A model generated the notes under the pieces. It saw nothing but the letters and a program-made list of their open reading frames with translations, was not told the origin of the DNA and made no database searches. A stretch of DNA of 64,000 bases from NCBI GenBank assembly GCA_016214885.1, contig JACRMP010000005.1, forward strand, positions 134,725-198,724, read 5' to 3'. Positions 13,709 to 31,340 of the stretch are shown here, one piece after another; position 1 is the stretch's first letter; every line of letters begins with the position of its first letter. A program made the translations under genes and the position numbers. Origin of the DNA: Candidatus Gottesmanbacteria bacterium (GTDB lineage Bacteria > Patescibacteriota > Microgenomatia > UBA10105 > UBA927).

Positions 13709-14056
13709 TTGACGCATCCGCTCAATTTTAGGTACACTGAAAGTATGTTTGAACAGGTGCTGGCCCAATCCGAAGATTTACAGGCGCTCGCCCCCAATCC
13801 CGGGCTTACATCGTTTGGCATGCTTATTACCGCAATTGTAAAGAATTCATTCGTTTTAGCAGGTATTATCAGCTTTATTTTGTTGATTTTCGGCGGATTT
13901 AACGTTATAGTAGCCGCAGGAGACGCCAAAAAGGCTCAACAGGGCAAAGCGGCAATTACAGGAGCCGTCACCGGACTGCTTCTGGTGCTTGGTTCTTTTT
14001 GGCTTGTCCAGATTATAGAAGTAATAACGGGTCTCAAGCTATTGAGTCCGCAATAA
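13709..14056 (+). CDS. TrbC/VirB2-like T4SS mini-pilin paralog
   Basis: Core FVLAGIISFILLIFGGFNVIVAAGDAKKAQQGKAAITGAVTGLLLVLGSFWLVQ. The likely true start is the internal MFEQVLAQ at 13745, which matches the xxLAQ leader of the other paralogs. Confidence 0.65.
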   Translation: MTHPLNFRYTESMFEQVLAQSEDLQALAPNPGLTSFGMLITAIVKNSFVLAGIISFILLIFGGFNVIVAAGDAKKAQQGKAAITGAVTGLLLVLGSFWLVQIIEVITGLKLLSPQ

Positions 14057-14065
14057 CACGAAATT

Positions 14066-14425
14066 ATGAAGCTGCTCGCACAGGCCGGAGAAATAGTCGG
14101 TTCAATAGAAAGCCCGCTTTCCAGCACCGGATACGGGAGCATATCATCGGGGGCTGTTGGATTGTTTATCACCAACGTTATCCGCTTGGCATTTGTCGCC
14201 GCCGGTATTTACGCCCTGTTTAACTTCATAATCGCCGGGTATTCATACATGAATGCTGCAGGTGACAGTAAAAAATTATCAGAAGCGTGGAGCCGTATCT
14301 GGCAATCCCTCATGGGTCTGGTTATTATTGTCGGATCATTTGCCCTCGCGTCATTGTTTGGCTACCTTATTTTCGGAAACGCCGGGTATATATTAAATCC
14401 GACTATCTACGGGCCCGGAGAATAA
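14066..14425 (+). CDS. TrbC/VirB2-like T4SS mini-pilin paralog
   Basis: MKLLAQ leader; core FVAAGIYALFNFIIAGYSYMNAAGDSKKLSEAWSRIWQSLMGLVIIVGSF. Confidence 0.65.
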   Translation: MKLLAQAGEIVGSIESPLSSTGYGSISSGAVGLFITNVIRLAFVAAGIYALFNFIIAGYSYMNAAGDSKKLSEAWSRIWQSLMGLVIIVGSFALASLFGYLIFGNAGYILNPTIYGPGE

Positions 14426-14426
14426 T

Positions 14427-14792
14427 ATGCGTGAACTTGCATTAGAATTAGGTCAAATCGGCGGCGAAGGCCTGGGGCCATTCGGATCAAACCCGGGCGA
14501 CGGGCTGACCGGCATCACCAGCATAGTTTCTTCTGTCATCGGCATCATGACAATAGCAGCAGGCATATGGTTCCTGTTCCAATTCATTATCGGAGGATTT
14601 AATTGGATCAACGCCGGAGGCGATAAAGCAAAGCTCCAGACATCCAAAGACAGACTTACCAATGCGTTTGTCGGGCTTATTGTCGTCGTTGCCGGGTGGG
14701 CAATCTTAGCCCTTGCAGGCACATTCTTTAATGTTGATTTCACCATATCAAATCCGGGCTCCCTGTTGCAGCAGCTGAGTCCGAACCGATAA
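14427..14792 (+). CDS. TrbC/VirB2-like T4SS mini-pilin paralog
   Basis: Core IAAGIWFLFQFIIGGFNWINAGGDKAKLQTSKDRLTNAFVGLIVVVAGWAILA. Confidence 0.65.
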   Translation: MRELALELGQIGGEGLGPFGSNPGDGLTGITSIVSSVIGIMTIAAGIWFLFQFIIGGFNWINAGGDKAKLQTSKDRLTNAFVGLIVVVAGWAILALAGTFFNVDFTISNPGSLLQQLSPNR

Positions 14793-14796
14793 CACT

Positions 14797-15138
14797 ATGA
14801 ACACTCTCGCCCAAATAGTAAATCCAGTACTCCCCGGCGCTCTGGGAAGCGGCGGCAACAGCACCGGGCCATCAGCGCTGGGCTCAATTATCAGCTCGCT
14901 TGTGGGTGTTTTTCTTATTCTTGCCTTCATTTCCGCCCTGCTTTACATGTTTCTTGGCGGATTTGACTGGATCACGAGCGGAGGCGACAAAACGAAACTT
15001 CAATCATCCCGGGACAAGATCACCAACTCCCTGGTAGGTCTTGTTGTTGTCGGAGCATCGTGGGCGGTTATGATGATTGTCGGCAACTTTATGGGCATTG
15101 ATTTCCCTAACCTACCTATTCCTGTTATCGGCAATTAA
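14797..15138 (+). CDS. TrbC/VirB2-like T4SS mini-pilin paralog
   Basis: MNTLAQ leader; core LYMFLGGFDWITSGGDKTKLQSSRDKITNSLVGLVVVGASWAVMM. Confidence 0.65.
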   Translation: MNTLAQIVNPVLPGALGSGGNSTGPSALGSIISSLVGVFLILAFISALLYMFLGGFDWITSGGDKTKLQSSRDKITNSLVGLVVVGASWAVMMIVGNFMGIDFPNLPIPVIGN

Positions 15139-15198
15139 CCAAGAGTGATAGGCTAAACCAAGAAAAAATAAACCTGTTTATTGACAAACCGAGTTTTG

Positions 15199-15228
15199 TT
15201 GCGCAAAAATGGAAGGTAGTGGTATAAT
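15199..15228 (+). promoter_or_regulatory. candidate sigma-70-type promoter upstream of pilin paralog 15263
   Basis: TTGCGC (15199..15204), an 18-nt spacer, then TATAAT (15223..15228), and AAAGGA 8 nt before the ATG at 15263. It lies in the only sizeable gap inside the pilin array. Confidence 0.35.
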
Positions 15229-15262
15229 AAAGCTTGTATTGATTTGACGAAAGGATTCATTT

Positions 15263-15592
15263 ATGCAAAAAGTATTTGCCCAAGCAGCACTGGATGTTAA
15301 ACAGCCGGACACTATCAAAATCACCGACATCGGCAAACTGATCAGTGCCCTCGTCGGAACCGTTCTTATCATCGCAGCGCTTTTGGCATTTCTTTACCTC
15401 ATCCTGGGAGGCATTAAGTGGATCACCTCCGGCGGCGACAAGGCCGGTATGGAAGAGGCGCGTAACAAAATTACCCACGCCATCGTCGGACTCATCATTG
15501 TCGGCTCTGCCTGGGCAGTGATGACGCTCGTCCAAAACTTCTTGGGCGTGCAGATCATCGGTGGTTCCATAAACTTCCCGAAGCCATACTAA
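15263..15592 (+). CDS. TrbC/VirB2-like T4SS mini-pilin paralog
   Basis: MQKVFAQ leader; core LYLILGGIKWITSGGDKAGMEEARNKITHAIVGLIIVGSAWAVMT. Confidence 0.65.
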   Translation: MQKVFAQAALDVKQPDTIKITDIGKLISALVGTVLIIAALLAFLYLILGGIKWITSGGDKAGMEEARNKITHAIVGLIIVGSAWAVMTLVQNFLGVQIIGGSINFPKPY

Positions 15593-15651
15593 CCGTTCAC
15601 AAAACGATTTTGGGCTTTACTCTGTAAGACTCCTGGGGGATAATATTATAT

Positions 15652-15948
15652 ATGGAAAGCTGCTCGATAGACGGCGTTGTACAAATCACCTGTATCATCC
15701 CGCTCGTTGCCAATGTAATCCGCGCTGTAGTGGCATTAGGCGCAGTAGCTCTGTTTGTCATGCTTCTTGCAGGAGGATTTAATTTCCTGTTTTCTTCCGG
15801 CGATCAAAAAAAACTTGAAGCTGCACGGGGCACCGTAACCCAGGCAATTGTTGGTATTATTATCATGTCTGTAGCATTCCTTATCTTACGCACCATACAA
15901 TTATTTACGGGAGTTGACGTGTCTACACTGCAGTTTCCTACACCGTAG
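15652..15948 (+). CDS. TrbC/VirB2-like T4SS mini-pilin paralog (shortest)
   Basis: Core VMLLAGGFNFLFSSGDQKKLEAARGTVTQAIVGIIIMSVAFLILR. Confidence 0.6.
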   Translation: MESCSIDGVVQITCIIPLVANVIRAVVALGAVALFVMLLAGGFNFLFSSGDQKKLEAARGTVTQAIVGIIIMSVAFLILRTIQLFTGVDVSTLQFPTP

Positions 15949-16000
15949 ATACAGAATTCGAGTTGACGGCATGGCTCATTATTAATGATAATAGACAGGC

Positions 16001-17626
16001 ATGAAGCGATTATTTTTAACCATCACCGGACTCATTCTGGCACTTGCTGTTTCAGTAAACCCGCTCCGTGTATACGCACAGGGTGCTGATGCCGCCGCAA
16101 CAACAGCTCCCGCAGCTGGTGAATGCGATTCCTGGTTTGTGGCTCCGGTCACTTGTCTTTTGGAACCGATAACCAAAGGTGTTGCGGGATCCCTCAATAA
16201 ACAAATCGGCGACATCGGCACAGCAACATTTGCCATGGGGCAAATGGTTATTGCCGGCATGGGACTATGCGATTCTGAATGCAATCCGAATTGTCCCAAG
16301 GGAGTGAGTTTCCAGCACAGTGCAGTTGCCGGTCTTTCGACGACGGCGCTTGCGATGTACCAAAATCCTCCCGCAGAAACCAAAACCTATATTGCCGATG
16401 TCGGAAGAACCCTAGGATTCATGCCGAGAGTGCAGGCACAGGGAATCGGATTCTCCGGTCTTTCTGCACTTCTTGACCTGTGGAAAGCATTTAGAAATAT
16501 TGCCTATGCCCTGCTCGCCATCATCCTTATTGTCGTAGGCTTTATGGTCATGTTCCGGAAGAAAATTGACCCCAAGACTGTAGTGACGGTACAAAACGCA
16601 ATCCCACGCATCGTTATCGCCCTTCTTCTGGTTACCTTCTCTTATGCCATAGTAGGTGTCATGATTGATCTGATGTATCTGGCGATCGTGCTTATTGTTT
16701 CTATCGTTGCCGGAGCAGCGGGACCTTCTCTGGGACAATCAGTGAGCCTGTTTACAACAGGTGGCTCATGTGTAGGCGCCGGCAGCGGAGCGGCGGTAGA
16801 AATCGGCGGGGGCACCGCAACCACCCAGCAAGTTTCCACAATACTGTTTAACGGCGGCGTCGGCGGACTTATGCAGTTTTTTATGGGAAGCGGATTTCAG
16901 GCGTGGGACGATATTGCCTCCATGCTTACCGGAGGATTTGACGCAAAAACTACCGCAGCATACTTTATTGTCCCCGGTCTAATCGGCGCACTCGTCGGCG
17001 GCGGAAAAGGATTGTTTACCGGTCTTGTATCAGCGCCCATACTATTAACACTTATTATCCTTATCGTCTTAATCTTCGGGTTTATCCGACTTGTATTCAT
17101 GCTTATTGATGCGTATATCAATATCATCATTTCGTTACTCACTGCCCCATTCCACCTTATGATGGAGGCAATTCCGGGAACCAATGCGTTTTCCAACTGG
17201 TTTAAGAACCTATTATCCAAAATAATAGTATTCCCGATAACTGCGGTGTTACTTCTGGTTGCGGCGGTCTTGACCAGCCAGAATGTCGCTACCAAGATAT
17301 GGGCACCACCCATGCTTTCGAGCGGCGGCGGCGCGTTTGGCATGGCTGGTATTATCGGACTCGGCATGCTGCTTGTTATCCCGACCGTAGTTGCGGGCAT
17401 CCAAAAAGGACTTAAGGCAGAACCTCTGGTGCCGGGCGGAGTGGCGCCTATATTCGGTCCATTGGGAAGCGGCGTCGGACAACTCTTCTCGTTGGTATAT
17501 CAGGCGTCATTTGTCTCGAGTGCGCTACGGCACAAACCAGACGACAGAAGCGGTATGCAATTAGCACGCGAAGGCTCAACAAAGGGCTTGGGTGCCATCA
17601 CCGGTGGCGGCAGCGGCGGCCATTAA
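16001..17626 (+). CDS. VirB6/TrbL-like polytopic T4SS membrane protein with signal peptide
   Basis: Signal peptide MKRLFLTITGLILALAVSVNPLRVYA, a periplasmic Cys-containing N-domain, then at least six TM helices rich in Gly/Ala, and a Gly-rich tail ...GGGSGGH. It directly follows the pilin array. Confidence 0.55.
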   Translation: MKRLFLTITGLILALAVSVNPLRVYAQGADAAATTAPAAGECDSWFVAPVTCLLEPITKGVAGSLNKQIGDIGTATFAMGQMVIAGMGLCDSECNPNCPKGVSFQHSAVAGLSTTALAMYQNPPAETKTYIADVGRTLGFMPRVQAQGIGFSGLSALLDLWKAFRNIAYALLAIILIVVGFMVMFRKKIDPKTVVTVQNAIPRIVIALLLVTFSYAIVGVMIDLMYLAIVLIVSIVAGAAGPSLGQSVSLFTTGGSCVGAGSGAAVEIGGGTATTQQVSTILFNGGVGGLMQFFMGSGFQAWDDIASMLTGGFDAKTTAAYFIVPGLIGALVGGGKGLFTGLVSAPILLTLIILIVLIFGFIRLVFMLIDAYINIIISLLTAPFHLMMEAIPGTNAFSNWFKNLLSKIIVFPITAVLLLVAAVLTSQNVATKIWAPPMLSSGGGAFGMAGIIGLGMLLVIPTVVAGIQKGLKAEPLVPGGVAPIFGPLGSGVGQLFSLVYQASFVSSALRHKPDDRSGMQLAREGSTKGLGAITGGGSGGH

Positions 17627-17709
17627 TCTCCCCTAATAGATTGATGTTTTTCTCCCGGGAAATAATTCGTGCACGCGGGCTACTCACGGTAACGCAGCGT
17701 CACAAAAAC

Positions 17710-20700
17710 CTAATGCCCTCCCCCGCCAGCACTCTTCTGCTCTTCTACGGACTTTTCCGCAGCGATAGCAAGAGTTGCAAGGATGGGCACCCACCAATAC
17801 TTCCGCCCCATTGCCCAGAGCCGGTCAATAAGGGTGGTGTGGAACTCTTTCTGTAAATCCTGCAGGTACTCGGGGTGATTGATAAACAACCCCATATCGT
17901 GAGCGGTATGGATAATCTCCGACATTTTTATCTCATCCCACACATTTCCGTGGGAACCCGTGTATCGGGTTGAATAAGAAACCGCCTCAGCAATAGAATG
18001 CGGCCAATGGGCAATTTTTTCTTTCGCCAGGTGCTCCCAACGCTCTTTACCGAATATCGTCTGCAGCAGTTTGTTTTTCTCCAGACCACGGAAGTCCGGC
18101 TCAAAATGCTGGAGCAATCCGGTTAAACCAGGCACCAATTGCATTGATAGGTGCCTCCCCTTGTTCATCTCAAAAAACACGCGCATCATTTCCTTGACCG
18201 TTGCCTCGGCTGCATCAGGACCAGAATAATCAACGATGGCGGTGCGCACTTCCATCATCTTCTGCAAACTCTTAGTGTAGTCATTGGGGGAAAGCACCAT
18301 CTCGGAATTGGAGAAAAATTCCAGCATGCCGTCGCGGGCGCGCATCTGGGCGCCGACATCGCGGATCCTCCGGTGCATCGCAACAGTTCCGAGCTGATAA
18401 AAATTAGATTCTTTCCAGTCAAAGTCGGTTAAACTCATGGTAAGCGGCAACTTAAGCGCTGATATGGCGTCCATTTTATTCCTGAATGTAGCTCCCGACG
18501 CCTCAACCGTACGGCTCCGGTATATTTCCGCCTGCATATCCACAATCACCTGGCGCATGTTTTCATTGCGCGCGGGGTCGAACTTTAACAATTTAAGATA
18601 AGGCGCCACCAGTGCATCAAAATCTTTTTTGTCTGCCAAATCAATACGGGCAAACTGCCAATCTTTCTCATGGGCCATTTTCAGTTCAGCAAGCGACAGC
18701 GCTTCCTTAAACTTTTTCCACTCTTCGTGGGTTACATTATTTTTGGTTAATATCTTTTCCGTATCTTCTTCCAGTAGTTCAAGGAACTTAGAGGGGTTTC
18801 TCCGGAGCATGCGGTCGAGTATCGGTTTGCGCTCTGCAGCGTTTCCGGCAGTCAGCAACTGGATAGACAGCGCTTGGTTATCAAGAAGCGCAGCGTTTTC
18901 CGGAAGCTTCTTCATACTGAGCATCTTGCCTCGGAGTTCGTCAGATATTCCTTTTTCAAGCCGCCACGCGGTTCCGTCATAAAATCCTCCGGATGACATA
19001 AATCCGGGGCCTAATAACTCGCTGAAGGATATGCCGGTTGCATCCTCGGCAAACTCCCAGGTTTCCATTGCTTTCTGCCGCTGCTTGTCGTGCTCATGAT
19101 GCTTGGCGTCATGCCATTCGTGGGTTTTAGTAAGCTTCATCTTTTGTCCGATACTTTCCGCCATGCCTCCCAGATACTTCCTGAACCACCCCACTTCTTT
19201 AGGATTAATGCCCTTGGTGGTCAGAAGGTTTTTCCGGAATATGCTCCGAGCAGTAATACCCATGTCGCCGCCGATATTAAACCGGGTGGCAAATGTTTCC
19301 GGGTTGAATATGCGCTGAATATCCTCAAAAGCAGGAGCGCGCATCACGTGTTTGCCCGACGCTGTCCCATATTCGTTTGCCGGAGGAACAGACATCATGG
19401 CACCAATCATCGCCATACGCCCGCTCCCTATCATGGCCGTGCGCGATGCCCACAGTGCCATACGGACTTCATATTCGGCCGGTTTATAATTTGGATCCTC
19501 GGGATGCTGCGCCTGCAGATACTCCACAAGCCGCTTTCTCACCTCAATATCGACGGGTGATAATCCGCGGGTTTCCAACAGCTCCTGGGTGAAGTTTTCA
19601 TTAAGCATTTCTTCACGGTGTGAGTAAATCTGATAAAGGCGTTCAACTTCGGATAGCTGCTCCATTTCCTTTTCATTAAGTGCCACTCCCTCGCTCTTTT
19701 TCTTTAAGAGGTCCTCGCGGGCATTACGTAGCTTAGACAGGGTAATATGAAGCTCTGTATAGCTTTGCACGTCATCGTCCCACAGCATCACCCCTTCTGC
19801 TGCCAAGTCCTGCTGCTGCTGGATCTCGTGCATAAGCCGCTGGTCTTCAACAGACAACGGACTCTGGGTTTTCCCCTTTTCCGGGTCATATCCTTCCTGC
19901 CGTTGTTTTGCCTTAAGTTCTTTGAGAATGTCCTCGCGTTTCATCTTGCCGCCGTTCCAGTTCACTTCTTCCCGCATGTATTTCACTGCTTCTCCGTATT
20001 TTGCCCGCTTTGTTGCCATAAGCTCAAAAAGCACGTGTTCATACAGGCTGTATGCCTCGTTTGAATGATCGAAATTTTTATATAGGTGATCAAGGTCTGC
20101 TCCTTGGAGCAAACTCATGGCCTTAAGCCGGTCCTTCACGTCGCCCGGGTTATACATGAGTCCTTTTACGGCATATTCGTATTGACCGCGGCTATCCCAA
20201 TGCTTCTGGTACAACTGAACCGCCAAATGATATTCACTGCCGTATTTCCATACAAGGAAGTCCTTGAATTCCTGGAAGCGCTGATCCTGGGTAAGTGTCG
20301 GCCTGGTTTCTTCGCGGCCCATGGAATATATTTGGTCAATAAAATCGAAGTACCACCTAGCCTCTCCTTCATCTCCCTGGATAAGCATTTCGACATCAGA
20401 CGGCGGAATATACCGGAAATCGGGGAACACTTCGTCAGGTTTATGGAGTTCGGGGTTCGGCGAGTTCCCCATCACCTCGCCCCAGGTAACCACACGGCCG
20501 CCCCTGAGTTTCTCCTGGTGCTTCTGCATCCGTAAATCAGTAAAGCGCTCAAACTGGCGGACGCGTTCAACCGCCTGCTGCACCAATTTTTCACTTACTC
20601 CTTCTTTTCTCCCTTTTTCCACCATGCGGCGGACAGCGTCGTCTGTAAGTCTGCCGTCATACGCAGCTCCCGGATCGACCCGGAACCGAAACTGCAGCTC

Positions 20701-21327
20701 TTTAAGATCGGATGCTAGCGGTGTGTCTTTAAGATCCACGTCGGCTGCTTCGTCATATAAACTCTTCACTGCTCCCGTAAGCTCAGGGTCATTATCTCTA
20801 ACAGGTTCCCCGGCTTCACCATCTTCCCCCACTCCGGAGCCGCCCTGAATAACCGGCACCGCTTCGTATGCAATGCCTTCCAGTGTCGGGTGCTCCGCAA
20901 TAATTTTGCGCAAATATTTCCTCGCCTCAACGGCGGTGGGGCTTGTATATTCTGCTTCTTTGGCCACCCGTGCTAACCGCTCGGCAACCCCCCGCATATA
21001 CTCAGGATCGGCCAACTGGGATTCGTCTGCGGTAAGAAGCGACTCAACAATACTAAACACTCTGGCGTCTTTAGGTAAATCGGATTCATTCCCCACAATC
21101 CTTTTGGTTGTTTCTGATGTCGTCTCCTTGAGCTTGCCCACCAGCGCTGCCAGACGATCTACAGACACGGTGTGCTCACCTGTTTCGGGCACTTCAGGAG
21201 GTGCTTCCGCGGGAGGAGGCGTCGGCTCAACGGGGGCAGCCTGCTCCACTGGCTTAGCGGGCTGACCTGCTTCTGCAGCTTTTTTGGCCGCCTCATTTAA
21301 CCGCTTAAATAGTTCTTCGTTAGCCAT
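17710..21327 (-). CDS. large (1205 aa) tail-anchored protein of unknown function, T4SS-associated by position
   Basis: A single uninterrupted ORF. The N-terminus is Pro/Ala/Glu-rich (PVEQAAPVEPTPPPAEAPPEVPETGEH); the body is mostly predicted-helical and soluble; a His-rich segment THEWHDAKHHEHDKQ is present; one C-terminal TM (YWWVPILATLAIAA) is followed by SAGGGGH at the C-terminus. Confidence 0.55.
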   Translation of the reverse strand: MANEELFKRLNEAAKKAAEAGQPAKPVEQAAPVEPTPPPAEAPPEVPETGEHTVSVDRLAALVGKLKETTSETTKRIVGNESDLPKDARVFSIVESLLTADESQLADPEYMRGVAERLARVAKEAEYTSPTAVEARKYLRKIIAEHPTLEGIAYEAVPVIQGGSGVGEDGEAGEPVRDNDPELTGAVKSLYDEAADVDLKDTPLASDLKELQFRFRVDPGAAYDGRLTDDAVRRMVEKGRKEGVSEKLVQQAVERVRQFERFTDLRMQKHQEKLRGGRVVTWGEVMGNSPNPELHKPDEVFPDFRYIPPSDVEMLIQGDEGEARWYFDFIDQIYSMGREETRPTLTQDQRFQEFKDFLVWKYGSEYHLAVQLYQKHWDSRGQYEYAVKGLMYNPGDVKDRLKAMSLLQGADLDHLYKNFDHSNEAYSLYEHVLFELMATKRAKYGEAVKYMREEVNWNGGKMKREDILKELKAKQRQEGYDPEKGKTQSPLSVEDQRLMHEIQQQQDLAAEGVMLWDDDVQSYTELHITLSKLRNAREDLLKKKSEGVALNEKEMEQLSEVERLYQIYSHREEMLNENFTQELLETRGLSPVDIEVRKRLVEYLQAQHPEDPNYKPAEYEVRMALWASRTAMIGSGRMAMIGAMMSVPPANEYGTASGKHVMRAPAFEDIQRIFNPETFATRFNIGGDMGITARSIFRKNLLTTKGINPKEVGWFRKYLGGMAESIGQKMKLTKTHEWHDAKHHEHDKQRQKAMETWEFAEDATGISFSELLGPGFMSSGGFYDGTAWRLEKGISDELRGKMLSMKKLPENAALLDNQALSIQLLTAGNAAERKPILDRMLRRNPSKFLELLEEDTEKILTKNNVTHEEWKKFKEALSLAELKMAHEKDWQFARIDLADKKDFDALVAPYLKLLKFDPARNENMRQVIVDMQAEIYRSRTVEASGATFRNKMDAISALKLPLTMSLTDFDWKESNFYQLGTVAMHRRIRDVGAQMRARDGMLEFFSNSEMVLSPNDYTKSLQKMMEVRTAIVDYSGPDAAEATVKEMMRVFFEMNKGRHLSMQLVPGLTGLLQHFEPDFRGLEKNKLLQTIFGKERWEHLAKEKIAHWPHSIAEAVSYSTRYTGSHGNVWDEIKMSEIIHTAHDMGLFINHPEYLQDLQKEFHTTLIDRLWAMGRKYWWVPILATLAIAAEKSVEEQKSAGGGGH

Positions 21328-21410
21328 AGAGCGTAAACGACACGAAATAACGCGCTAAATACATGCGCCTCTTAATATTCTATCGTTTCGATCCGCTACA
21401 AACAAGGGAG

Positions 21411-21965
21411 CTATCGATAAAGACCGTGGGTAGCAATATACTGGCTGACATCGGGCGGTACGAACTCGTCAATCGACAGACCTGCTTTCACCCGCTCGCG
21501 GATTTTTGTCGATGAAATATTGCTCCCGATAAGAAAATCGCTGGTGATCAGCGTCATATGAGGATACAGCGGCTCGTTGGGAAACCCATACCGGGGAAAC
21601 ACCAGAAACGGCATATGCCGCAGCAATTCTTCCCATTTGCCCCACAAATGAAACGTCGGAAGCTGATCAGAGCCGATAATAAACCGAAATTCGTGTCCGT
21701 TTGGCAAGTGCGGCAACAGGTGAATAGTGTCCCCGTCAAGCTTGTGGTCAATTTCCAGTGTGGAAACTTGGGTTTTCTCAAATTCCAGAAGCTTGGTCAT
21801 CGCAAGGCGGTGCGATACTTCAATAACCGGCTTGGGGGGGATTTGTCCATAATTAGGAAGAAACCATACCTCGTCGGCATCCGTAAAATCCAGCACCTGC
21901 CGGGCAATCATCAGGTGACCTATGTGGGGAGGGTTAAACGCGCCGCCCAAGAGTCCGATCTTCAT
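21411..21965 (-). CDS. nadD: nicotinate-nucleotide adenylyltransferase
   Basis: MKIGLLGGAFNPPHIGHLMIARQVLDF (the (H/T)xGH nucleotidyltransferase motif) and IGSDQLPTFHLWGKWEELL. Confidence 0.85.
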   Translation of the reverse strand: MKIGLLGGAFNPPHIGHLMIARQVLDFTDADEVWFLPNYGQIPPKPVIEVSHRLAMTKLLEFEKTQVSTLEIDHKLDGDTIHLLPHLPNGHEFRFIIGSDQLPTFHLWGKWEELLRHMPFLVFPRYGFPNEPLYPHMTLITSDFLIGSNISSTKIRERVKAGLSIDEFVPPDVSQYIATHGLYR

Positions 21966-21971
21966 AGCCTC

Positions 21972-24277: not shown

Positions 24278-25600
24278 ATGGAACAGCACCCAGTGCCGCA
24301 AAACGTAACCACTTTTCAATTCCGTCTCATAGGAGACATGACGATCAAACAATTCGGATATCTTATTGCCGGAGGCATCCTCGCGGTTATTGCATACAAA
24401 TTACCCCTTCCGTTTATCATCACCTGGCCGCTTGCGGGTGCGTTTGCATTTTTAGGAGTGGGGTTTGCGTTTATCCCCGTCGAGGAACGGCCGATGGACG
24501 TATGGGTGTTCTCATTCTTTAAAAGCGTGTATAGCCCGACACAGTATATATGGTCACACGACCAAACTCCGGAAAACGCGGCCACTGCTGCTACCCCCGA
24601 TGTTATACATACTCCCACAAAACCTGCCCCGCTTACGGCTGCAACACCGGCACCCGCACCACAACCGGTACAAGTAGCACAACCGCAGGCCGCCAAAGCT
24701 GTGCTGACCGGATTGTTCCAACCCACCCAACAGGTCGCTCCCCCACCAAAACCGGTAGCGTTTACCGTGCCAGCAAAACACACATCGTTTATGGACGAGG
24801 TTATGGGATGGCTTTTTCCTAAACCTAAGGCCGCTACTGCGCCGGTACCCCCTCAGGCAGCAACACCTTCCGTAACAGGATACCGGCCTCCCGCGCCCCC
24901 TACCGCGGCACCTGTTTCGGCAGCAGATACCAAAGCTAACGAAGCCATTCACAACAAAATGACCCAACTGGAAGACACCCTAAAAACGTTGGAGGAGCGG
25001 TTGTCCACAAAAACCATAACTGAGGACCGGGTGTTGGAACTGCAAAAACAACTTACCGACGTCTTGTCACAAAAAGCAAAAACCGAAGACGAGCTTATTG
25101 CGTTAAAGCGGCATCTTACCACCCCACCGCCTCAACCTTCCGTGCCCCCACAACCCACAACGGTTGCCCAACCGCAACAAAAAGAGGCGCCTCTCACCCC
25201 GGCCTCCCGCGGGGCAGTAAATGTCATCACCACGCAGGAGGGGGCAGTAAAGGCGGGGCTCCCCCGGCTTACTAATGTCCCCAATGTCATAACGGGGCTT
25301 GTCAAAGACGACACGGGCAACTTTCTTCCCGGCATACTCGTTACTGTAACAAACAGCGACGGCATCCCCATGCGCGCGCTCAAAACAAACAAGCTCGGAC
25401 AGTTTGCTGCCTCAACCCAACTCGCGTCCGGAACATATTTTGTGGAAGTCGAAGATCCGAGGGGAAGATTTACCTTTTCCCGCGTGCAGATTACCCTAAA
25501 CAATGCCGTTGTTCCCATTCTCGAAATAATTGCAAAAAGCGAAAAAGCGCTCACCCGAGAAAAACTTGCACAGGAAATTTTTGGTAAACCAAATCTGTAA
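24278..25600 (+). CDS. mosaic T4SS membrane protein: VirB3/PrgI-like two-TM N-terminus, Pro-rich linker, coiled coil, C-terminal CarboxypepD_reg-like beta-sandwich
   Basis: Two TM helices at the N-terminus (YLIAGGILAVIAYKL, ITWPLAGAFAFLGVGFAFIPV); PAPLTAATPAPAPQPVQVAQPQ low-complexity region; heptad segment LEDTLKTLEERL...LELQKQLTD; C-terminal GLVKDDTGNFLPGILVTVTNSDGIPMRALKTNKLGQFAASTQLASGTYFVEVEDPRGRF. Confidence 0.45.
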   Translation: MEQHPVPQNVTTFQFRLIGDMTIKQFGYLIAGGILAVIAYKLPLPFIITWPLAGAFAFLGVGFAFIPVEERPMDVWVFSFFKSVYSPTQYIWSHDQTPENAATAATPDVIHTPTKPAPLTAATPAPAPQPVQVAQPQAAKAVLTGLFQPTQQVAPPPKPVAFTVPAKHTSFMDEVMGWLFPKPKAATAPVPPQAATPSVTGYRPPAPPTAAPVSAADTKANEAIHNKMTQLEDTLKTLEERLSTKTITEDRVLELQKQLTDVLSQKAKTEDELIALKRHLTTPPPQPSVPPQPTTVAQPQQKEAPLTPASRGAVNVITTQEGAVKAGLPRLTNVPNVITGLVKDDTGNFLPGILVTVTNSDGIPMRALKTNKLGQFAASTQLASGTYFVEVEDPRGRFTFSRVQITLNNAVVPILEIIAKSEKALTREKLAQEIFGKPNL

Positions 25601-25603
25601 CCT

Positions 25604-26266
25604 ATGGCCGAACCAATTACTCCAATCAGAGACTCAACGCAAATGTTTACTGAAATCGTGGCAGTGGATCACGACCTTGTCTTGTTCCGCGACGGATCGG
25701 TTGCCCTTGTCATTGCTACTACCGCGGTAAATTTTGGGTTGCTTTCTGAAAAGGAACAGGACGCGATCATCTATTCCTATGCAGGGCTTCTTAACTCATT
25801 GTCATTTCCCATACAAATCCTTATTCAGACAAAACACAAAGACATTTCCGCCTACCTTAAGCTCCTTGAGGATCAGGAGTCGCGGCAAACGAACCCCAAG
25901 CTGACCCGCAACATTCACAGTTACCGGCTCTTTGTAGCTTCTATGGTAAAGGAAAAAGATGTTTTGGATAAAAAGTTTTATATCGTTATACCTTTTTCAA
26001 GCATTGAGCTTGGGGTGTCTTCATCGCTCTTGTTTAGTCCGAAAAAATCAGGCCTCCCGTACGAAAAGTCATATATCTTTGACAAGGCGCAACTGGTGCT
26101 GGTGCCCAAACGTGATCATATTTTGCGCTTACTGGCGAGGGTGGGTCTTAAGGCCACACAACTGTCTTCCGATGCGCTCGTAAATCTGTTTTTCAGCATG
26201 TATAACCCGGGAAGCCCCGCCCCAGATGTCACCCGGCTGTTTCCGGGAAAGGAGCCGCATGAGTAA
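25604..26266 (+). CDS. soluble hypothetical protein inside the T4SS operon
   Basis: 220 aa with no TM helices. Its 3' end overlaps the VirB4 start by about 8 nt, suggesting translational coupling. Confidence 0.4.
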   Translation: MAEPITPIRDSTQMFTEIVAVDHDLVLFRDGSVALVIATTAVNFGLLSEKEQDAIIYSYAGLLNSLSFPIQILIQTKHKDISAYLKLLEDQESRQTNPKLTRNIHSYRLFVASMVKEKDVLDKKFYIVIPFSSIELGVSSSLLFSPKKSGLPYEKSYIFDKAQLVLVPKRDHILRLLARVGLKATQLSSDALVNLFFSMYNPGSPAPDVTRLFPGKEPHE

Positions 26267-28190
26267 ACCATTTAATCTAACGACATTTGTAAGCGGATTT
26301 ATGAATCCGGTAAAGCCGGGTTTGTCTTCACCGCGGCAATCAGGGCAACCGCTCGTCGTTACCGACATTATTGCTCCTCCCGCAATCGAGGTGGATTTTG
26401 ATCTTCTGAAGATCGGCGACTGGTACTATAGATCGCTTTTTGTCGCCGGATATCCTCGCTTTGTATCAGCAAACTGGCTTGAGCCGCTGGTTTCTTTTAA
26501 CCACACGCTCGATATATCAATGTATATCTATCCCACCCGGAGCGAAGAAATATTAGAAAACCTGAAGCGAAAAGTGGGAGAAATGGAAGCGACCATCCAA
26601 TCGGATCTCAAACGCGGCCGCGTTATTGAGCCGTCAGTGCAGGTGGCTCTGGAAGATGCATTGGCACTGCAACAGGAGTTGGCAAAAGGATCAGAGCGGT
26701 TTTTCCAATTCGGCCTTTATGTAACAATTCCCGCAAAAACCCGTGAGGATCTGGATAAAACAACCAAATCCGTTGAGGCAACGCTCGGAAGCTTACTTAT
26801 CGTCACCAAAAAATCCATCCTCCAGATGGAAGAGGGGCTCAAAACCACGCTTCCCATGGGACGAGACAGATTACTGGTCACCCGCAACATGGACACCACG
26901 TCGCTCGCAACCACGTTTCCGTTTACGACCAGCGAACTTACTGCCAACGAAGGAATTCTCTATGGCCTTAATGAACACAATGATTCGCTTATTATCTTCG
27001 ACCGATTCACTCTCGAAAACGCAAACTCTGTCGTGTTCGGCAAATCAGGAGGCGGAAAAAGCTACATGGTCAAACTGGAGATCATGCGGAGCCTCATGTT
27101 CGATACTGAAGTTATAGTCATCGACCCTGAAAATGAATATGAGGCGCTTACCCACACACTTGGAGGGGAATATATCCGGTTCCGTTTCGGCTCCAACACA
27201 AAACTCAACCCATTTGATCTGGCCCTACTCGGCAATGACGGAGCCTCACAAAGCGAACTCAGCCAAAAAGTATTGTCGTTACACGGGTTTTTCCGTGTGG
27301 TTATGGGCAAACTTACCCCGACAGAAGACGCGTTGCTTGATAGAGCGCTCATCCTTACCTATAAGCAAAAGGGTATTACTCCCGACCCAACTACCCACAG
27401 CAAAGAGCCGCCGCTCATGGAGGATCTTTATAAAACACTGGTGGGAATGGAAGAGCTCCTTGCGAAGGGGCTTGCCGACCGTATCGAAAAATTTGTCAAA
27501 GGAAGCTTGGTGGGCATATTTGACCAGCAAACAAATATAGAAATCAGAAACCAGCTAACTGTGTTTTCCATCCGCGACCTTGAGGACGAGCTCAGACCGA
27601 TTGCCATGTATCTTATTTTGGATTACATCTGGAACAAAATACGGCACAACAAAAAACGGCGCCTGCTTATTGTTGACGAGGCCTGGTACATGATGAAATA
27701 CCCTGATTCGGCACAATTTTTATACGGTATTGCGAAACGTGCAAGAAAATACTACCTTGGCTTGACTACCATAACCCAGGACGTCGAGGATTTTATGGCA
27801 ACGGAAATGGGCAAGGCCATTATTCAAAATAGCAGCATGCAGATACTTCTCAAACAATCCTCTGCTGCCATAGATACCATTGCTCAGGTGTTTTACCTTT
27901 CGGAAGGAGAAAAGCACCTGCTTCTTGCCGCCGATGTCGGTCAGGGATTGTTTTTTGCGGGACCCGCTCATGCCGCCATGCGGGTTATTGCAAGTCCCGA
28001 AGAGCACGCGGTTGCCACCACCAAGCCACAGGAGGCGCTCAAGGCTAAACCCACCGTTCAAAACACACAACCCGTTCATCCCTCCGAAGCCATGCCCGCT
28101 CCGCAGCAAAACGCGGCGCCCACTACCCCGCCGCCCTCCAACCGGCCGATTTTCACCGTAGAAACAGTAGACACTAAGCCGACGCCGTAA
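26259..28190 (+). CDS. VirB4/TrsE/PrgJ-like T4SS ATPase
   Basis: CagE_TrbE_VirB-type N-region IEVDFDLLKIGDWYYRSLFVAGYPRFVSANWLEPL; Walker A VVFGKSGGGKSYMV; Walker B RRLLIVDEAWYMM; Pro/Ala-rich C-terminal tail. The start is trimmed to MSKPFNL. Confidence 0.75.
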   Translation: MSKPFNLTTFVSGFMNPVKPGLSSPRQSGQPLVVTDIIAPPAIEVDFDLLKIGDWYYRSLFVAGYPRFVSANWLEPLVSFNHTLDISMYIYPTRSEEILENLKRKVGEMEATIQSDLKRGRVIEPSVQVALEDALALQQELAKGSERFFQFGLYVTIPAKTREDLDKTTKSVEATLGSLLIVTKKSILQMEEGLKTTLPMGRDRLLVTRNMDTTSLATTFPFTTSELTANEGILYGLNEHNDSLIIFDRFTLENANSVVFGKSGGGKSYMVKLEIMRSLMFDTEVIVIDPENEYEALTHTLGGEYIRFRFGSNTKLNPFDLALLGNDGASQSELSQKVLSLHGFFRVVMGKLTPTEDALLDRALILTYKQKGITPDPTTHSKEPPLMEDLYKTLVGMEELLAKGLADRIEKFVKGSLVGIFDQQTNIEIRNQLTVFSIRDLEDELRPIAMYLILDYIWNKIRHNKKRRLLIVDEAWYMMKYPDSAQFLYGIAKRARKYYLGLTTITQDVEDFMATEMGKAIIQNSSMQILLKQSSAAIDTIAQVFYLSEGEKHLLLAADVGQGLFFAGPAHAAMRVIASPEEHAVATTKPQEALKAKPTVQNTQPVHPSEAMPAPQQNAAPTTPPPSNRPIFTVETVDTKPTP

Positions 28191-28194
28191 CCCT

Positions 28195-30375
28195 ATGACA
28201 GACACGCCACAGACACTGCGCGAGTTTGCCCAAAACCTGCTATCGGATTTATCAAGCGGAGCAATCACTGTTCATGAGGCGTACGCAGCGGCCAACCAAT
28301 ACGCATACCTCCGTCAGGAACTCACCGGCGCATCGCTTACCCTCAGTGAGGCGGCGGCGCTCGGTGATGAAGAGCTCGTCCAAGCATTTACCAGTATCCT
28401 CTCTGAAACGGTAAAAAAGCTGTCAGAGTTACCGAACTTTCAAACACAACAACCAGACGCAGTTGAAACGGAGAAAAACATCCGGGACGTGGCGGCTTTA
28501 CAAAAAACAGCCACAACCCGCATACGGGAGTCAGAAAAAAATAAACCGGATAAAAATAAGCGAAGAGCGTTTGTTCATTCGTTGGTTGACCGCTTCAGCT
28601 CTACCATACCCGCGCTCACCGAGCGTCAGATTGACCGCCTGATAGAAAAGTCCTCGGTAACGGCCGCGCGGGCAACGCCTACCGATCAACAGTCGCGGTT
28701 TACCCAACAGCTCGCTGATTCTATAGAAAGCCTTGCCGGTGATATACCCGATGACCAAAAAAGAAATATAGATACGGTTATCCGAGCCGCCGTTGCAGAA
28801 CAGAAAGACGTTGTTAACACACAGATCGCCGGCGCCAGACGGGAACTGGCCGTATATGCTGCGCTTTTCGGCGTCACTGAACTCAAGCGACCGGATGTGT
28901 TTGCCGACGTTATACTTAACGCCCCGCAATCAGAACAGTTGGATGTGTCATTAACCCGCGCAGAAAAACTTGCCCGCGTTGCACAGGCTCTGGAAGAATC
29001 CAGCAATTCCCGTGGTGGCAAACTGCAATTTTTCTCGGCTAACGGAGCTAAGGGAGTTGCCGGCGGATTGCAAAAAGGCGCTGATGGCATCCTTTCACTT
29101 ATCGGGGAGCCGGCTCGGGAAATGCTTCTCCATGAAAAAGTAAACGGAACGCTCCGGAATATGCTTACCAGCACTCAACAGTTTGCAGACCGGCTAGGCG
29201 AATCGTTTGTTCATTCTGCGGTGTTTACCCACATTACCCAGGACCTCACCAAGCAACTTGCCCAAAAACCACAGGGCGGTCAGGCGCGGTCTGTTTTTGA
29301 TGACGTATTTTCCTCAGTATTCAGGGGGCCTCTCGCCGCCCCGCTTACCCGCAGCACAAAAAGCGGTATTCTGGATTTTTATGAGCTTGCCCGCGCCAAT
29401 GCAGCAGCCCCGTTAGGAAAAAAGTTTCTCGCTCCCGGCGTACTCCCGTGGGATATTTTCCGCGCGTTTGAACCGGGGGGCATGACTTCCTCTGGAAGCT
29501 ATAAAGGGCCTTCTGCGCGTAAACCATTTCTATCGCTTCTCGGCTTCGGATCGTTTGGGAATTTTTTGGGGGATATGGTAAGCGGGCTCATCGACAAAAC
29601 AACGTCGATGGCGCTCCTTAATCCCAGGCTCCCCGGACAACTTTCTGCCTCCAGAAGAGCGGCCGGCATACCCACCCCCCTTGTCGATGATATGCCCCTC
29701 TTAACGGCCCTTGTTGTTGTAGTAGTACTAGTCCTTCTCTTTCTCCTCCCCTCGCCGCTTAACCTCAATACAATCAACCACAGCTCAAAGGCAAGCGCTC
29801 TTCTGGCTGCTCTTTCAGATGGTCTCCAGACAATAATAAACCCGATCGCCGAAATTATCTGTGTCGGCGAGTGCAAGTGGCCGACATCAGGAACAATAAC
29901 TCAGGGTCCGAACACAAGCTCTTCACATAAAGGTACGATTAAGGAAAGCATAGATATTGGAACTTCGTGCGGCACACCCGTAGTTTCCACGCTTCAGGCC
30001 GGCGCGGTGGTGACGGGGGTATTCAACGAATGTCTCGACGATACCGGATATATCGGGAATAAATGCGGTGGCGGCTGGGGAAATTACGTTGATATTAAAG
30101 GGACAATTAATACGGGCACAGGAAAAGCAACTGCCGTAACGGTGCGGCTTTCACACCTTATGAAAAACAGCATGCCTCCCTCAGGAACAGTTTTACAACA
30201 GGGACAAAAAGTTGGCCAGGTTGATGACAACGGAAACTCCTCTGATTGCCATCTCCACTACGAGGTTAGGAGCGGGGGTCCTATAAACAACGTTCTTCCC
30301 TACCCGGTTCCTTCCTGTACAAGCTCGGCGGCGTGTTGTTCGCAAATGGGTGTAAAATGTAATGTAACTCCATGA
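28195..30375 (+). CDS. membrane-anchored M23 (LytM) peptidase, T4SS-associated peptidoglycan hydrolase (PrgK/VirB1 analog)
   Basis: Long helical N-terminal region, a TM helix LLTALVVVVVLVLLFLLPSPL, then the M23 signature GWGNYVDIKG...VRLSHLMKN...GQKVGQVDDNGNSSDCHLHYEVRSGG. Confidence 0.65.
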   Translation: MTDTPQTLREFAQNLLSDLSSGAITVHEAYAAANQYAYLRQELTGASLTLSEAAALGDEELVQAFTSILSETVKKLSELPNFQTQQPDAVETEKNIRDVAALQKTATTRIRESEKNKPDKNKRRAFVHSLVDRFSSTIPALTERQIDRLIEKSSVTAARATPTDQQSRFTQQLADSIESLAGDIPDDQKRNIDTVIRAAVAEQKDVVNTQIAGARRELAVYAALFGVTELKRPDVFADVILNAPQSEQLDVSLTRAEKLARVAQALEESSNSRGGKLQFFSANGAKGVAGGLQKGADGILSLIGEPAREMLLHEKVNGTLRNMLTSTQQFADRLGESFVHSAVFTHITQDLTKQLAQKPQGGQARSVFDDVFSSVFRGPLAAPLTRSTKSGILDFYELARANAAAPLGKKFLAPGVLPWDIFRAFEPGGMTSSGSYKGPSARKPFLSLLGFGSFGNFLGDMVSGLIDKTTSMALLNPRLPGQLSASRRAAGIPTPLVDDMPLLTALVVVVVLVLLFLLPSPLNLNTINHSSKASALLAALSDGLQTIINPIAEIICVGECKWPTSGTITQGPNTSSSHKGTIKESIDIGTSCGTPVVSTLQAGAVVTGVFNECLDDTGYIGNKCGGGWGNYVDIKGTINTGTGKATAVTVRLSHLMKNSMPPSGTVLQQGQKVGQVDDNGNSSDCHLHYEVRSGGPINNVLPYPVPSCTSSAACCSQMGVKCNVTP

Positions 30376-31340
30376 AAAAAACCCGCGTCATCTTTCTTGC
30401 TTTGTTCATTATATTACTCGTGTCAGCGTGGCTTTTTCTTCCCAAAAAACCCCCGCAGGAAACAACCCCCCCACCAAAACCCACGCTTGTTGGTGATCCG
30501 CCTATTATGGAGTTTGTTCCGGGCGCACCGAAAAATGTCCGCTTTTCTATTGAAAGCGGCGCTACTGTCCGCCTTCCTTCTTTACACCAAACATACGCCG
30601 TCGTACCTCTGGATCCTGAGCCGCTTGCGTATTCGTTTGCGGCGAGAACGGGGTTTACTAACCCCGCCTCTGTTTCCCACGACTCAACAAAAAAAACGGT
30701 TTGGAAATCGGCCACAGGATCCTTGTCATTTACAACAAACGGTCGTATTGGCGCCATCAGTTTTCGAAACGACACGGGCTACCAGGTGACACAAGGATCT
30801 CAGCAACAAGCCGCGGAAGAATATCTCCGGCTTTTGCTGGGAGCAGAAGCAAAAAACTACTCCCTATTTTCACAACAAATCCTTTCCGAATCATCAACAG
30901 AGGGGGGGTCGGCGATTAAAGCAGGTGCTGTAATGTTCCTTTTTTCGTATTCTGTAGGCGGGGTGCCGGTGCTCGTTGCTAATTTTGATCCTGTTTCTGC
31001 TTCGGTTATAGTGGGGAGCGACGGGAAAATATTATATTCTTCAACAACATTCCCCCCAGGGACGCTTTCGCTGCGTTCTAACCAGGCCTCTGTTTCAATT
31101 GAAAATATTGTTGCCAGTCTCAACGCCAACAAGGGAGTGTTGCTATCATCTTATGATGACGCAAGCGACGAGTATGGGGAGGAGCCGGTGTTTTCTGCGG
31201 TAAACATTTCCCGTTCTACAGGAGTTTTATATTATGACTCGGAGGCTTCTTTGCTAATTCCGGGGTTGTTAATCGACGGCACGGGAACATCAGCAACCAA
31301 AAATCAGGTGGTACAGTATTTTATCAGGGCGACCGAATAA
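30372..31340 (+). CDS. N-terminally anchored extracytoplasmic protein (possible VirB8/TcpC-like T4SS component)
   Basis: MKKTRVIFLALFIILLVSAWLFL is a signal anchor, followed by a Pro-rich linker PPQETTPPPKPT and a soluble domain. It is the last gene of the VirB4 operon. The family assignment rests on position and topology only. Confidence 0.4.
   Translation: MKKTRVIFLALFIILLVSAWLFLPKKPPQETTPPPKPTLVGDPPIMEFVPGAPKNVRFSIESGATVRLPSLHQTYAVVPLDPEPLAYSFAARTGFTNPASVSHDSTKKTVWKSATGSLSFTTNGRIGAISFRNDTGYQVTQGSQQQAAEEYLRLLLGAEAKNYSLFSQQILSESSTEGGSAIKAGAVMFLFSYSVGGVPVLVANFDPVSASVIVGSDGKILYSSTTFPPGTLSLRSNQASVSIENIVASLNANKGVLLSSYDDASDEYGEEPVFSAVNISRSTGVLYYDSEASLLIPGLLIDGTGTSATKNQVVQYFIRATE

Follow-up and report, generated by a model that had tools for sequence, protein, structure and literature searches.

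A complete-looking type IV secretion gene cluster beside the probable replication origin of a Candidatus Gottesmanbacteria bacterium

We analyzed a stretch of 64,000 nucleotides from a Candidatus Gottesmanbacteria genome (assembly GCA_016214885.1, contig JACRMP010000005.1, positions 134,725 to 198,724), subsequently called the window, and found at 13.7–31.3 kb a complete-looking type IV secretion system (T4SS) gene cluster, recognized from the map of open reading frames (ORFs) and from Pfam and NCBIfam scans. The cluster is an old, vertically inherited fixture of the chromosome and not an integrated element. Judged by its sequence, we assign it with high confidence to the Patescibacteria clade of T4SSs rather than to the conjugative elements, and very likely it is a chromosomal, vertically inherited system that arose from the MPF-FATA conjugation machinery of monoderm bacteria and is no longer mobile. 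We consider it reasonably probable that the cluster encodes a pilus-like conduit that serves the contact with a host cell; export of a protein or another macromolecule is suggested tentatively, at somewhat less than an even chance.

Layout, genomic position and inheritance of the cluster

The gene layout indicates three apparent transcription units (Table 1). Unit 1 on the plus strand carries the pilin genes pil1 to pil6 and a VirB6-like gene, unit 2 on the minus strand encodes an ATPase resembling VirD4-type type IV coupling proteins (T4CPs), the nicotinate-nucleotide adenylyltransferase gene nadD and a protein of 1205 aa, and unit 3, again on the plus strand, encodes PrgI, TrsD, VirB4, an M23 hydrolase and a 322-aa protein (p322); units 2 and 3 diverge from a 122-bp spacer. 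Intergenic gaps within the cluster do not exceed 124 bp, and its GC content is the same as that of the left flank. The roles of VirB1, VirB2, VirB3, VirB4, VirB6 and VirD4 are filled.

A preliminary description of this DNA had listed six tandem mini-pilins, a VirB6/TrbL-like protein, a 1205-aa tail-anchored protein, a VirD4-like ATPase, a VirB3-like mosaic protein, a VirB4-like ATPase, a membrane M23 peptidoglycan hydrolase and an anchored accessory protein, and each item was recovered in the ORF map and the family scans, at the coordinates given. The pilins are borne out by PF18895 matches for all six and a common two-helix layout, the VirD4-like ATPase by three Pfam domains above cut-off, the mosaic protein by a PrgI match just above cut-off together with a CarboxypepD_reg domain, the hydrolase by an M23 match above cut-off, zinc motifs and one transmembrane (TM) segment, and the accessory protein by an N-terminal anchor in the hydropathy scan of the 322-aa ORF; the 1205-aa protein is real and conserved, its tail anchor having been read by eye. 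Two identifications call for a qualification. The VirB6/TrbL-like protein holds by fold (TrwI/DotA-like) and gene placement but not by sequence profiles, and the VirB4-like ATPase passes the cut-off of the CD1110 family, but its gene is split and the TrsD-like gene for its N-terminal domain had been overlooked. The profile searches proposed at that time gave matches for PF18895, TraG-D_C, M23 and the VirB4 family, but none to the TrbL/VirB6 profiles for the window protein. Also missing from the description were nadD, a divergently oriented gene beside the pilin array that encodes an extracytoplasmic function (ECF) sigma factor, and a second group of pilin genes. The chromosomal site that it had given, beside dnaA, dnaN and the origin, was correct: dnaN adjoins the cluster, and the cumulative GC-skew minimum (~32–33 kb) and three DnaA-box matches are found there.

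Table 1. Positions of the cluster genes and of neighbouring features in the window, with the evidence for each
Feature	Position	Strand	Evidence
Two extra T4SS_pilin genes	4251-4664, 4669-5019	+	PF18895 28.1 and 34.6 bits, both above gathering score
76-aa single-TM ORF, possible anti-sigma factor	12913-13143	-	Directly after ECF sigma gene
ECF sigma factor, candidate regulator (inferred)	13146-13706	-	Sigma70_r2 and Sigma70_r4_2; TIGR02937 77.5 bits (cut-off 42.9)
pil1, VirB2-like T4SS pilin	13709-14056	+	PF18895 20.7 bits, below gathering score; two TM helices
pil2, VirB2-like pilin	14066-14425	+	PF18895 20.6 bits; NF045849 25.8 bits, sub-threshold; ortholog median identity 61%
pil3, VirB2-like pilin	14427-14792	+	PF18895 24.9 bits; ortholog median identity 54%
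pil4, VirB2-like pilin	14797-15138	+	PF18895 23.8 bits; ortholog median identity 53%
pil5, most conserved pilin	15263-15592	+	PF18895 41.2 bits (gathering score 26.6)
pil6, VirB2-like pilin	15652-15948	+	PF18895 24.2 bits; ortholog median identity 56%
VirB6/DotA-like polytopic membrane protein, 541 aa	16001-17626	+	Signal peptide, at least 6 TM segments
1205-aa tail-anchored protein, orphan family	17710-21327	-	Last gene of T4CP-nadD operon; mostly helical; ends AGGGGH
nadD, nicotinate-nucleotide adenylyltransferase	21411-21965	-	TIGR00482 129.3 bits (cut-off 112.45)
VirD4/TrwB-like coupling-protein-type ATPase, 727 aa	21972-24155	-	TrwB_AAD_bind 30.7, TraG-D_C 25.6 and DUF87 44.6 bits, all above cut-off
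PrgI/VirB3-like fusion, 440 aa	24278-25600	+	PrgI 27.6 bits (cut-off 27), CarboxypepD_reg 32.3 bits
TrsD-like protein, separate VirB4 N-terminal domain, 220 aa	25604-26266	+	NF041427 26.9 bits, sub-threshold
VirB4 ATPase, CD1110 (MPF-FATA type)	26301-28190	+	NF045971 396 bits (cut-off 325)
Predicted membrane peptidoglycan hydrolase, 726 aa	28195-30375	+	Peptidase_M23 32.0 bits (cut-off 28.7)
p322, N-terminally anchored extracytoplasmic protein, 322 aa	30372-31340	+	Start overlaps M23 gene stop
dnaN	31341-32453	-	Pfam DNA_pol3_beta domains 1-3; abuts cluster
dnaA-dnaN spacer, probable oriC region	32454-32635	.	DnaA-box matches at 32551, 32596, 32617
dnaA	32636-34072	-	Pfam Bac_DnaA, Bac_DnaA_C

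Related loci were collected with the T4CP-like protein as probe at one genome per species, which gave 68 loci; the probe adjoins VirB4 in 39, and these species-level genomes are the 39 loci or genomes referred to below. A scan with a profile of the VirB6-like protein gave a second set of 80 metagenome contigs, all within the same lineage. Across the 39 genomes, the VirB4 proteins of which are 65–92% identical to that of the window, the order dnaA, dnaN, p322, hydrolase, VirB4, TrsD and PrgI is kept and is continued by T4CP, nadD and the big protein, then the VirB6-like gene and pil6 to pil1, and finally ECF sigma, a Yip1-like gene and HMG-CoA reductase; the metagenome contigs have the identical order as far as each of them reaches. 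Many metagenome-assembled genome (MAG) records in which this Gottesmanbacteria-type gene order occurs bear the title ‘uncultured Gammaproteobacteria’ or ‘Pseudomonadales’ (L006, L010, L011, L013 and others); these titles, given to TPA_asm binchicken assemblies, are evidently mislabelled.

Vertical inheritance and the loss of mobility follow from this fixed order in 39 genomes and 80 contigs and from the genuine housekeeping gene nadD embedded in the cluster. It seems very improbable that we are dealing with an integrated or recently decayed conjugative element that sits beside oriC and moves DNA between cells. In favour of such an element, all recognizable parts have their ancestry in monoderm conjugation modules, and the cluster includes a T4CP-like ATPase, but no Pfam domain of a relaxase, integrase or transposase was found in the ORFs of at least 110 aa of the window (dedicated MOB hidden Markov models were not used), and the tRNA and Rfam scans of the 64 kb were empty, leaving no tRNA target for integration. 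The composition resembles that of the flank, nadD lies inside, and position and order are the same in all 39 species. The other ORFs of the window are housekeeping and envelope genes (mevalonate pathway, uppS, glycosyltransferases, Wzy-type ligases, radical-SAM). Relaxases are rare in this part of the bacterial tree, too: a survey of 3,035 Patescibacteria genomes (Quinonero-Coronel 2025, Microb Genom; PMC12102498) counted 109, and only 103 of the 3,035 genomes bear one. The earlier proposal of a resident apparatus rather than a conjugative element, which had pointed to missing relaxase and transposase hallmarks and asked for a comparison of gene order, is supported on each of these counts: within the window the hallmarks are absent, and the oriC-side order is kept.

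Components of the apparatus

The VirB4 protein matches positions 186–730 of the 752 in model NF045971, and the first ~185 positions are without counterpart. The preceding gene encodes a TrsD-like protein that aligns to positions 129–234 of the VirB4_plasma model, with PF26593 (TraC-like) as a weak precomputed match, and it lies adjacent to virB4 in 39/39 loci. To judge from these alignments, the N-terminal domain of VirB4 is supplied by the TrsD-like gene, which makes this a split VirB4. A frameshift artefact was ruled out as the cause of the split, because every related gene call and locus has two distinct genes here and the split is the published norm. The VirB4 ORF opens at 26226, 25 codons before the start used in the public annotation (26301); the 629-aa form that results from the latter is 100% identical to protein P0002, and the ORF form has 654 aa. 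VirB4 also matches P-loop_TraG at 2e-25, and its nearest solved relative is Thermoanaerobacter VirB4 (PDB 4ag5, 1.5e-45), with TrwK at 5e-6. Among the best 120 of 8000 matches its nearest homologs are 75–100% identical and, where named, come from Gottesmanbacteria or Patescibacteria; the nearest plasmid relatives belong to Firmicutes and Actinobacteria at 30–37% identity.

The gene in front of this pair encodes a 440-aa protein composed of a PrgI part with two TM helices (residues 26–64), a Pro-rich/coiled-coil linker and a CarboxypepD_reg-like beta-sandwich. Full-length orthologs stand beside TrsD–VirB4 in 39/39 loci, whereas the survey found the corresponding adjacency for 22.6% of Microgenomatia VirB3 hits (PMC12102498). 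This gap probably reflects the sensitivity of the survey, because the PrgI score is borderline here.

PF18895 (T4SS_pilin) was matched by all six ORFs of the array, pil5 alone exceeding the gathering score. All six share a short N-terminus, a hydrophobic helix, a loop of the form GG..(G/A)GD..K and a second hydrophobic helix. The paralogs are 19–43% identical to each other and fall into six separate orthogroups; in 27/27 genome loci that have at least five pilins, each is represented by a 1:1 ortholog in the corresponding place of the array. Ordered 1:1 orthology was likewise observed in the metagenome loci, namely in the 38 contigs that hold a complete ordered array beside the VirB6-like gene and in all partial arrays but one. 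The ratio of non-synonymous to synonymous divergence (dN/dS) of the pilins is at most 0.25 wherever estimable, indicating purifying selection. Six orthogroups in fixed order under purifying selection argue for specialized, non-redundant subunits and speak against rapid antigenic variation within the lineage. The orthologs of pil5 are 60–100% identical with a median of 78%, the same as for VirB4, and its dN of 0.00–0.12 is the lowest among 18 genes compared; because it is as conserved as VirB4, pil5 is likely the major pilin. A tblastn search with pil5 against plasmids gave no match.

Promoter and terminator scans barely exceeded the shuffled expectation, and their results are hints only. A promoter-like site, TTGACG-18-TACACT, ends 6 nt upstream of an ATG at 13745, and for this reason the true start of pil1 is probably this ATG, giving 103 aa; the mRNA may then be leaderless or near-leaderless. 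The start of the divergent ECF sigma gene is less than 40 bp away. A second promoter-like site (15181–15210) lies in the 124-bp gap before pil5.

Two further pilin genes, which make eight in the window, are located 8.7 kb upstream of the array between a gene for a SpoIID/LytB-domain protein (2346–4109) and uppS, and a similar uppS-adjacent pair occurs in loci L055, L097, L104, L105 and L111. Seven of the eight window pilins also match NF045849, the pilin-like family of Mycoplasma integrative conjugative elements (ICEs), at 19.7–30 bits (cut-off 40; E 3e-7 to 5e-4). Given this sub-threshold similarity, small two-helix pilins of the VirB2 type may not be alien to monoderm T4SSs.

The 541-aa protein encoded downstream of pil6 has a Cys-containing external N-terminal domain and a GGGSGGH tail. 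Neither Pfam nor NCBIfam (including TrbL, VirB6 and PrgH) gave a match, nor did its profile searched against the PDB, and TrbL was matched by 1 of 23 orthologs (E 5e-4). The best structural matches of its predicted model are TrwI/VirB6 of R388 Trw and DotA, at low TM-scores of 0.2–0.4. The gene sits with pilin and virB4 genes and the modelled fold is polytopic and helical like that of TrwI and DotA, and by predicted fold we class the protein as VirB6/DotA-like.

The convergent gene encodes the 1205-aa protein, whose short C-terminal hydrophobic anchor, YWWVPILATLAIAA, was read by eye and lies below the threshold of the hydropathy scan. The family is small: only 101 representative clusters match among 1.84 billion, and in most related loci its slot is taken by diverged positional orthologs. 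The protein has no Pfam, NCBIfam or PDB match, a 39-member profile found none in Pfam or PDB either, and the family alignment holds no invariant His or Tyr. The idea of a hidden relaxase or a member of a known family was dropped in view of these empty searches and the lack of an invariant His or Tyr. Because the VirD4-like ATPase is without a TM anchor and the 1205-aa gene follows it downstream on the same strand, we suggest that the 1205-aa protein may serve as a membrane platform for the soluble ATPase.

At the C-terminus of the VirB6-like and the 1205-aa proteins there is often a run of 3–11 glycines followed by a histidine. Among the ORFs of at least 150 aa in 42 related genome loci, all such tails (31/31) belong to these two genes. 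The tail is present on both proteins in 30 of 78 loci, on neither in 34 and on only one in 14, a co-variation that may be explained largely by shared ancestry. We offer a link between the tails and the Gly-Gly-specific M23 family as no more than an idea.

The VirD4-like ATPase carries a Walker A motif (GKTGTGKS) and a Walker B motif (VDEFQ), both read from the sequence, and among PDB sequences it comes closest to TrwB (9e-6) and DotL (1.7e-3). In place of TM helices it has an N-terminal region of ~330 aa with a weak precomputed match to DUF8128. Both this ATPase and PrgI lie inside the cluster in 39/39 loci, and the median identity of the ATPase to the window protein is 71%, above most structural parts. 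This co-conservation speaks against an adhesive VirB2-type pilus that attaches to the host and translocates no substrate, a reading that we regard as improbable. It does have the eight pilin genes in its favour, and in model T4SSs pilus biogenesis is independent of the coupling protein. Pilins are moreover essential in the Patescibacteria species Southlakia epibionticum (PMC10633639), but type IV pili already serve adhesion in Patescibacteria (PMC12206443, PMC12857230).

The gene nadD, whose product falls under CTP_transf_like and passes the NadD cut-off, lies between the T4CP-like and 1205-aa genes in 34/39 genome loci. In two sibling strains (L001 and L002, 99.5% DNA identity in both flanks) a 4.2-kb insertion is found between the 1205-aa gene and nadD (914–5156 in L001, against window 21328–21456), and nadD has a changed 3′ end as a result. 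The inserted genes are those of a 257-aa protein, a YcaO protein, a nitroreductase and a DUF2268 protein, and together they resemble a cassette for azoline-type ribosomally synthesized and post-translationally modified peptides (RiPPs); the locus thus tolerates small indels without itself being mobile.

The 726-aa hydrolase consists of an N-terminal domain of ~500 aa, a TM segment at residues 500–518 and a C-terminal M23 domain; the orthologs retain its zinc-ligand motifs (HxH and H..D). The protein is a predicted peptidoglycan hydrolase that would fill the VirB1 role with its catalytic domain outside the membrane. In two species (loci L031 and L056) an unrelated domain containing Cys takes the place of M23, a sign that the wall-hydrolase head may be swapped as a module. 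A homology of the N-terminal domain with that of Firmicutes T4SS hydrolases was rejected, as BLASTP gave no match. The fast-evolving parts of the cluster are this hydrolase and p322, not the pilins: dN is 0.41–0.65 for the hydrolase and 0.8–0.96 for p322, the fastest of the 18 genes, against 0.06 for VirB4, and median identity to the window is 37% and 27%, respectively, compared with 78% for VirB4 and pil5 and 72% for dnaA. Close homologs of p322 number only 4 among 5.8 billion clusters, and its positional orthologs of ~330 aa are only ~20% identical. Its size, anchor and position after the hydrolase fit a VirB8/TcpC-like component with NTF2 fold; no sequence match accompanies this fit. As a VirB8/TcpC homolog p322 is unsupported, having no Pfam or PDB match and, in a low-confidence model (pLDDT 48), YycH/YycI/YpeB-like tandem alpha/beta proteins as top structural matches. 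Profile alignment (hhalign) with its positional counterpart on a Paenibacillus plasmid, described below, also gave no match.

Related systems and possible function

T4SSs that are relaxase-less, pilin-bearing and origin-proximal have already been described (2023–2025), this class included. In S. epibionticum the T4SS and its pilins are essential, and no coupling protein or relaxase is recognizable (Wang 2023, Cell; PMC10633639); its T4SS genes are SEML1_0006-0019 (PMC10633639), and these low locus-tag numbers are consistent with a position near dnaA. The survey introduced above found the Patescibacteria VirB4 clade to be monophyletic and nested in MPF-FATA, TrsD and PrgI to be widespread, VirB2-like pilins to form arrays of 2–11 genes, especially in Microgenomatia and Saccharimonadia, and the T4SS to lie near dnaA/dnaN in Paceibacteria and Microgenomatia (PMC12102498); a 2025 FEMS review repeats this picture (PMC12857230). 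The function of the Patescibacteria T4SS has been called ‘completely unknown’ (PMC11665869).

The window cluster agrees with this clade in its MPF-FATA-derived VirB4 with a separate TrsD-like gene, its PrgI/VirB3-like gene, its tandem divergent pilins (six in S. epibionticum, too), the M23-type hydrolase downstream of virB4, the missing relaxase and the adjacency to dnaA/dnaN; the survey includes Microgenomatia. That VirB2-like pilins occur together with a Gram-positive-type set, which the preliminary description had called unusual, is real but is a published hallmark of Patescibacteria T4SSs, and the sub-threshold similarity to the Mycoplasma family NF045849 tempers the view that such pilins are foreign to monoderm systems. 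Two differences stand out against the survey. The T4CP-type ATPase lies within the cluster here, a placement that the survey recorded for only 148/5,713 T4CP homologs, and a VirB6-like protein is present that is invisible to sequence HMMs, VirB6 being termed ‘scarce’ in Microgenomatia (PMC12102498). Lineage-specific extras are the 1205-aa protein, nadD within the cluster, the ECF sigma gene at its flank and the Gly-His tails. To the published picture our analysis adds the pilin orthogroups, the VirB6/DotA-like fold, the fast evolution of M23 and p322, the linkage of T4CP and PrgI, the Gly-His tails and the ECF sigma gene.

As a representative of monoderm conjugative T4SSs of the CD1110/CTn2 type (MPF-FATA) we compared the Paenibacillus urinalis plasmid NZ_CP118103. 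PrgI, VirB4, a hydrolase of ~730 aa with C-terminal catalytic domain and a protein of ~270 aa are colinear with the window genes, and a VirD4-like ATPase and a TrbL-like protein are encoded nearby. However, a relaxase is encoded on the plasmid, its VirB4 of 789 aa is not split, NlpC/P60 stands in place of M23, no pilin array was detected on it, and neither the N-terminal domain of the hydrolase nor the downstream protein has sequence similarity to its counterpart in the window. R388 Trw and Legionella Dot-Icm resemble the cluster in that TrwI/VirB6 and DotA are polytopic helical proteins at the base of the pilus or channel, but both are diderm systems with outer-membrane core complexes, which the window cluster lacks, and no match exists at the sequence level. 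In Mycoplasma ICEs the pilin-like family NF045849 (Mbov_0395) comprises small two-helix proteins encoded two locus tags from an MPF-FATA-type VirB4; there, as far as is known, the pilin-like genes are single-copy parts of a mobile element.

Helicobacter pylori ComB and the crenarchaeal Ced system are, like the window cluster, relaxase-less and chromosomal and possess VirB4/VirB6/VirB2-like parts; the trio of VirB2-like, VirB6-like and VirB4 proteins is the composition of the archaeal Ced importer. By analogy the apparatus might work inward and take up host DNA, nucleotides or other macromolecules, offsetting missing biosynthesis, a direction that we consider somewhat unlikely. There are similarities to CedB (49 bits, cut-off 700) and CedD (36 bits, cut-off 600), but they are faint and sub-threshold, no component could be assigned to the CedB, CedD or ComB families, and VirB4, the protein compared with CedB, scores 396 bits with a bacterial conjugative family. 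A T4CP-type ATPase is tightly linked here, unlike in H. pylori ComB, which is without T4CP, and the cluster holds no recognizable DNA-binding or nuclease component. In favour of import are the missing relaxase and the observation that S. epibionticum needs its T4SS but can do without ComEC competence (PMC10633639, PMC11665869); uptake is also favoured by the authors of the survey (PMC12102498).

If the apparatus is, as we prefer, a conduit at the host-cell interface, analogy with solved T4SSs would assign the following parts to its components. The M23 hydrolase would open or remodel the wall locally. PrgI, TrsD and VirB4 would form a membrane-associated energizing ATPase complex, and the VirB6-like protein would serve as channel and as platform for pilus assembly. 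VirB4 would pull pilins from the membrane and polymerize them into a VirB2-type filament or conduit, with pil5 as likely major subunit and at least five other paralogs as non-redundant specialized ones. A substrate would be fed or received by the soluble T4CP-like ATPase, for which the co-transcribed 1205-aa tail-anchored protein is perhaps the docking site. A more elaborate version, which we regard as a long shot, has the six (or eight) fixed, non-redundant pilins building a heteromeric conduit and the extracytoplasmic Gly-His tails docking into, or being trimmed by, M23 and p322. If true, docking of the tails to M23 would couple wall opening to channel assembly in a host-exchange machine; both the docking and the direction of transport are speculation.

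Several points weigh against our interpretation. For this lineage it is built on sequence and models, and the absence of a relaxase covers only the 64-kb window. Five of the six array pilins remain below the curated PF18895 cut-off (20.6–24.9 bits, E 2e-5 to 5e-4), as does the TrsD-like protein for its own model. A recognizable VirB8 was found neither in the sequence searches of the cluster nor in the model of p322, in line with published work. The hydropathy scan detected no TM segment in the VirD4-like ATPase, in more distant lineages within the Candidate Phyla Radiation (CPR) the T4CP-like homologs are not linked to virB4 or other T4SS genes, and in S. epibionticum published transposon sequencing (Tn-seq) classed the T4CP homolog as non-essential. 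Since the ATPase lacks a TM segment, is unlinked elsewhere and has a non-essential homolog, we infer its participation from conserved linkage only.

Much of bacterial diversity is accounted for by Patescibacteria, which apparently live off other cells, and their origin-proximal T4SS without relaxase is essential in the one species tested. The Gottesmanbacteria locus is a T4SS of a known kind, in a form that is unusually complete and rigidly conserved. With its linked coupling-type ATPase, VirB6-like protein and six pilin orthogroups it is useful as a template for structural modelling, and it helps to separate constrained parts (pil5, VirB4, T4CP-like ATPase) from racing ones (M23 hydrolase, p322).

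Neighbouring genes

In 22 genome loci and many metagenome loci the ECF sigma gene occupies the corresponding place. The 76-aa ORF directly behind it has no family match; that it encodes an anti-sigma factor is speculative and is suggested by the typical position of such genes. The two form a group on the minus strand (12913–13706) that is followed by the gene of a Yip1-like membrane protein, a position conserved in related loci, and this group may regulate the pilin operon.

Further to the left, beside uppS, positions 5709–12265 (minus strand) hold an apparently complete mevalonate pathway operon with genes for thiolase, HMG-CoA synthase, HMG-CoA reductase, two GHMP kinases and diphosphomevalonate decarboxylase, which is notable for a reduced CPR genome. 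On the opposite side of oriC, the region 38000–61000 has a GC content of 0.40–0.46, compared with ~0.49–0.52, and is dense in surface-polysaccharide genes. It encodes glycosyltransferases, two Wzy-type ligases, a flippase, GDSL esterases, two radical-SAM/SPASM enzymes and an ABC-2 exporter, and may be a variable surface-glycan island.

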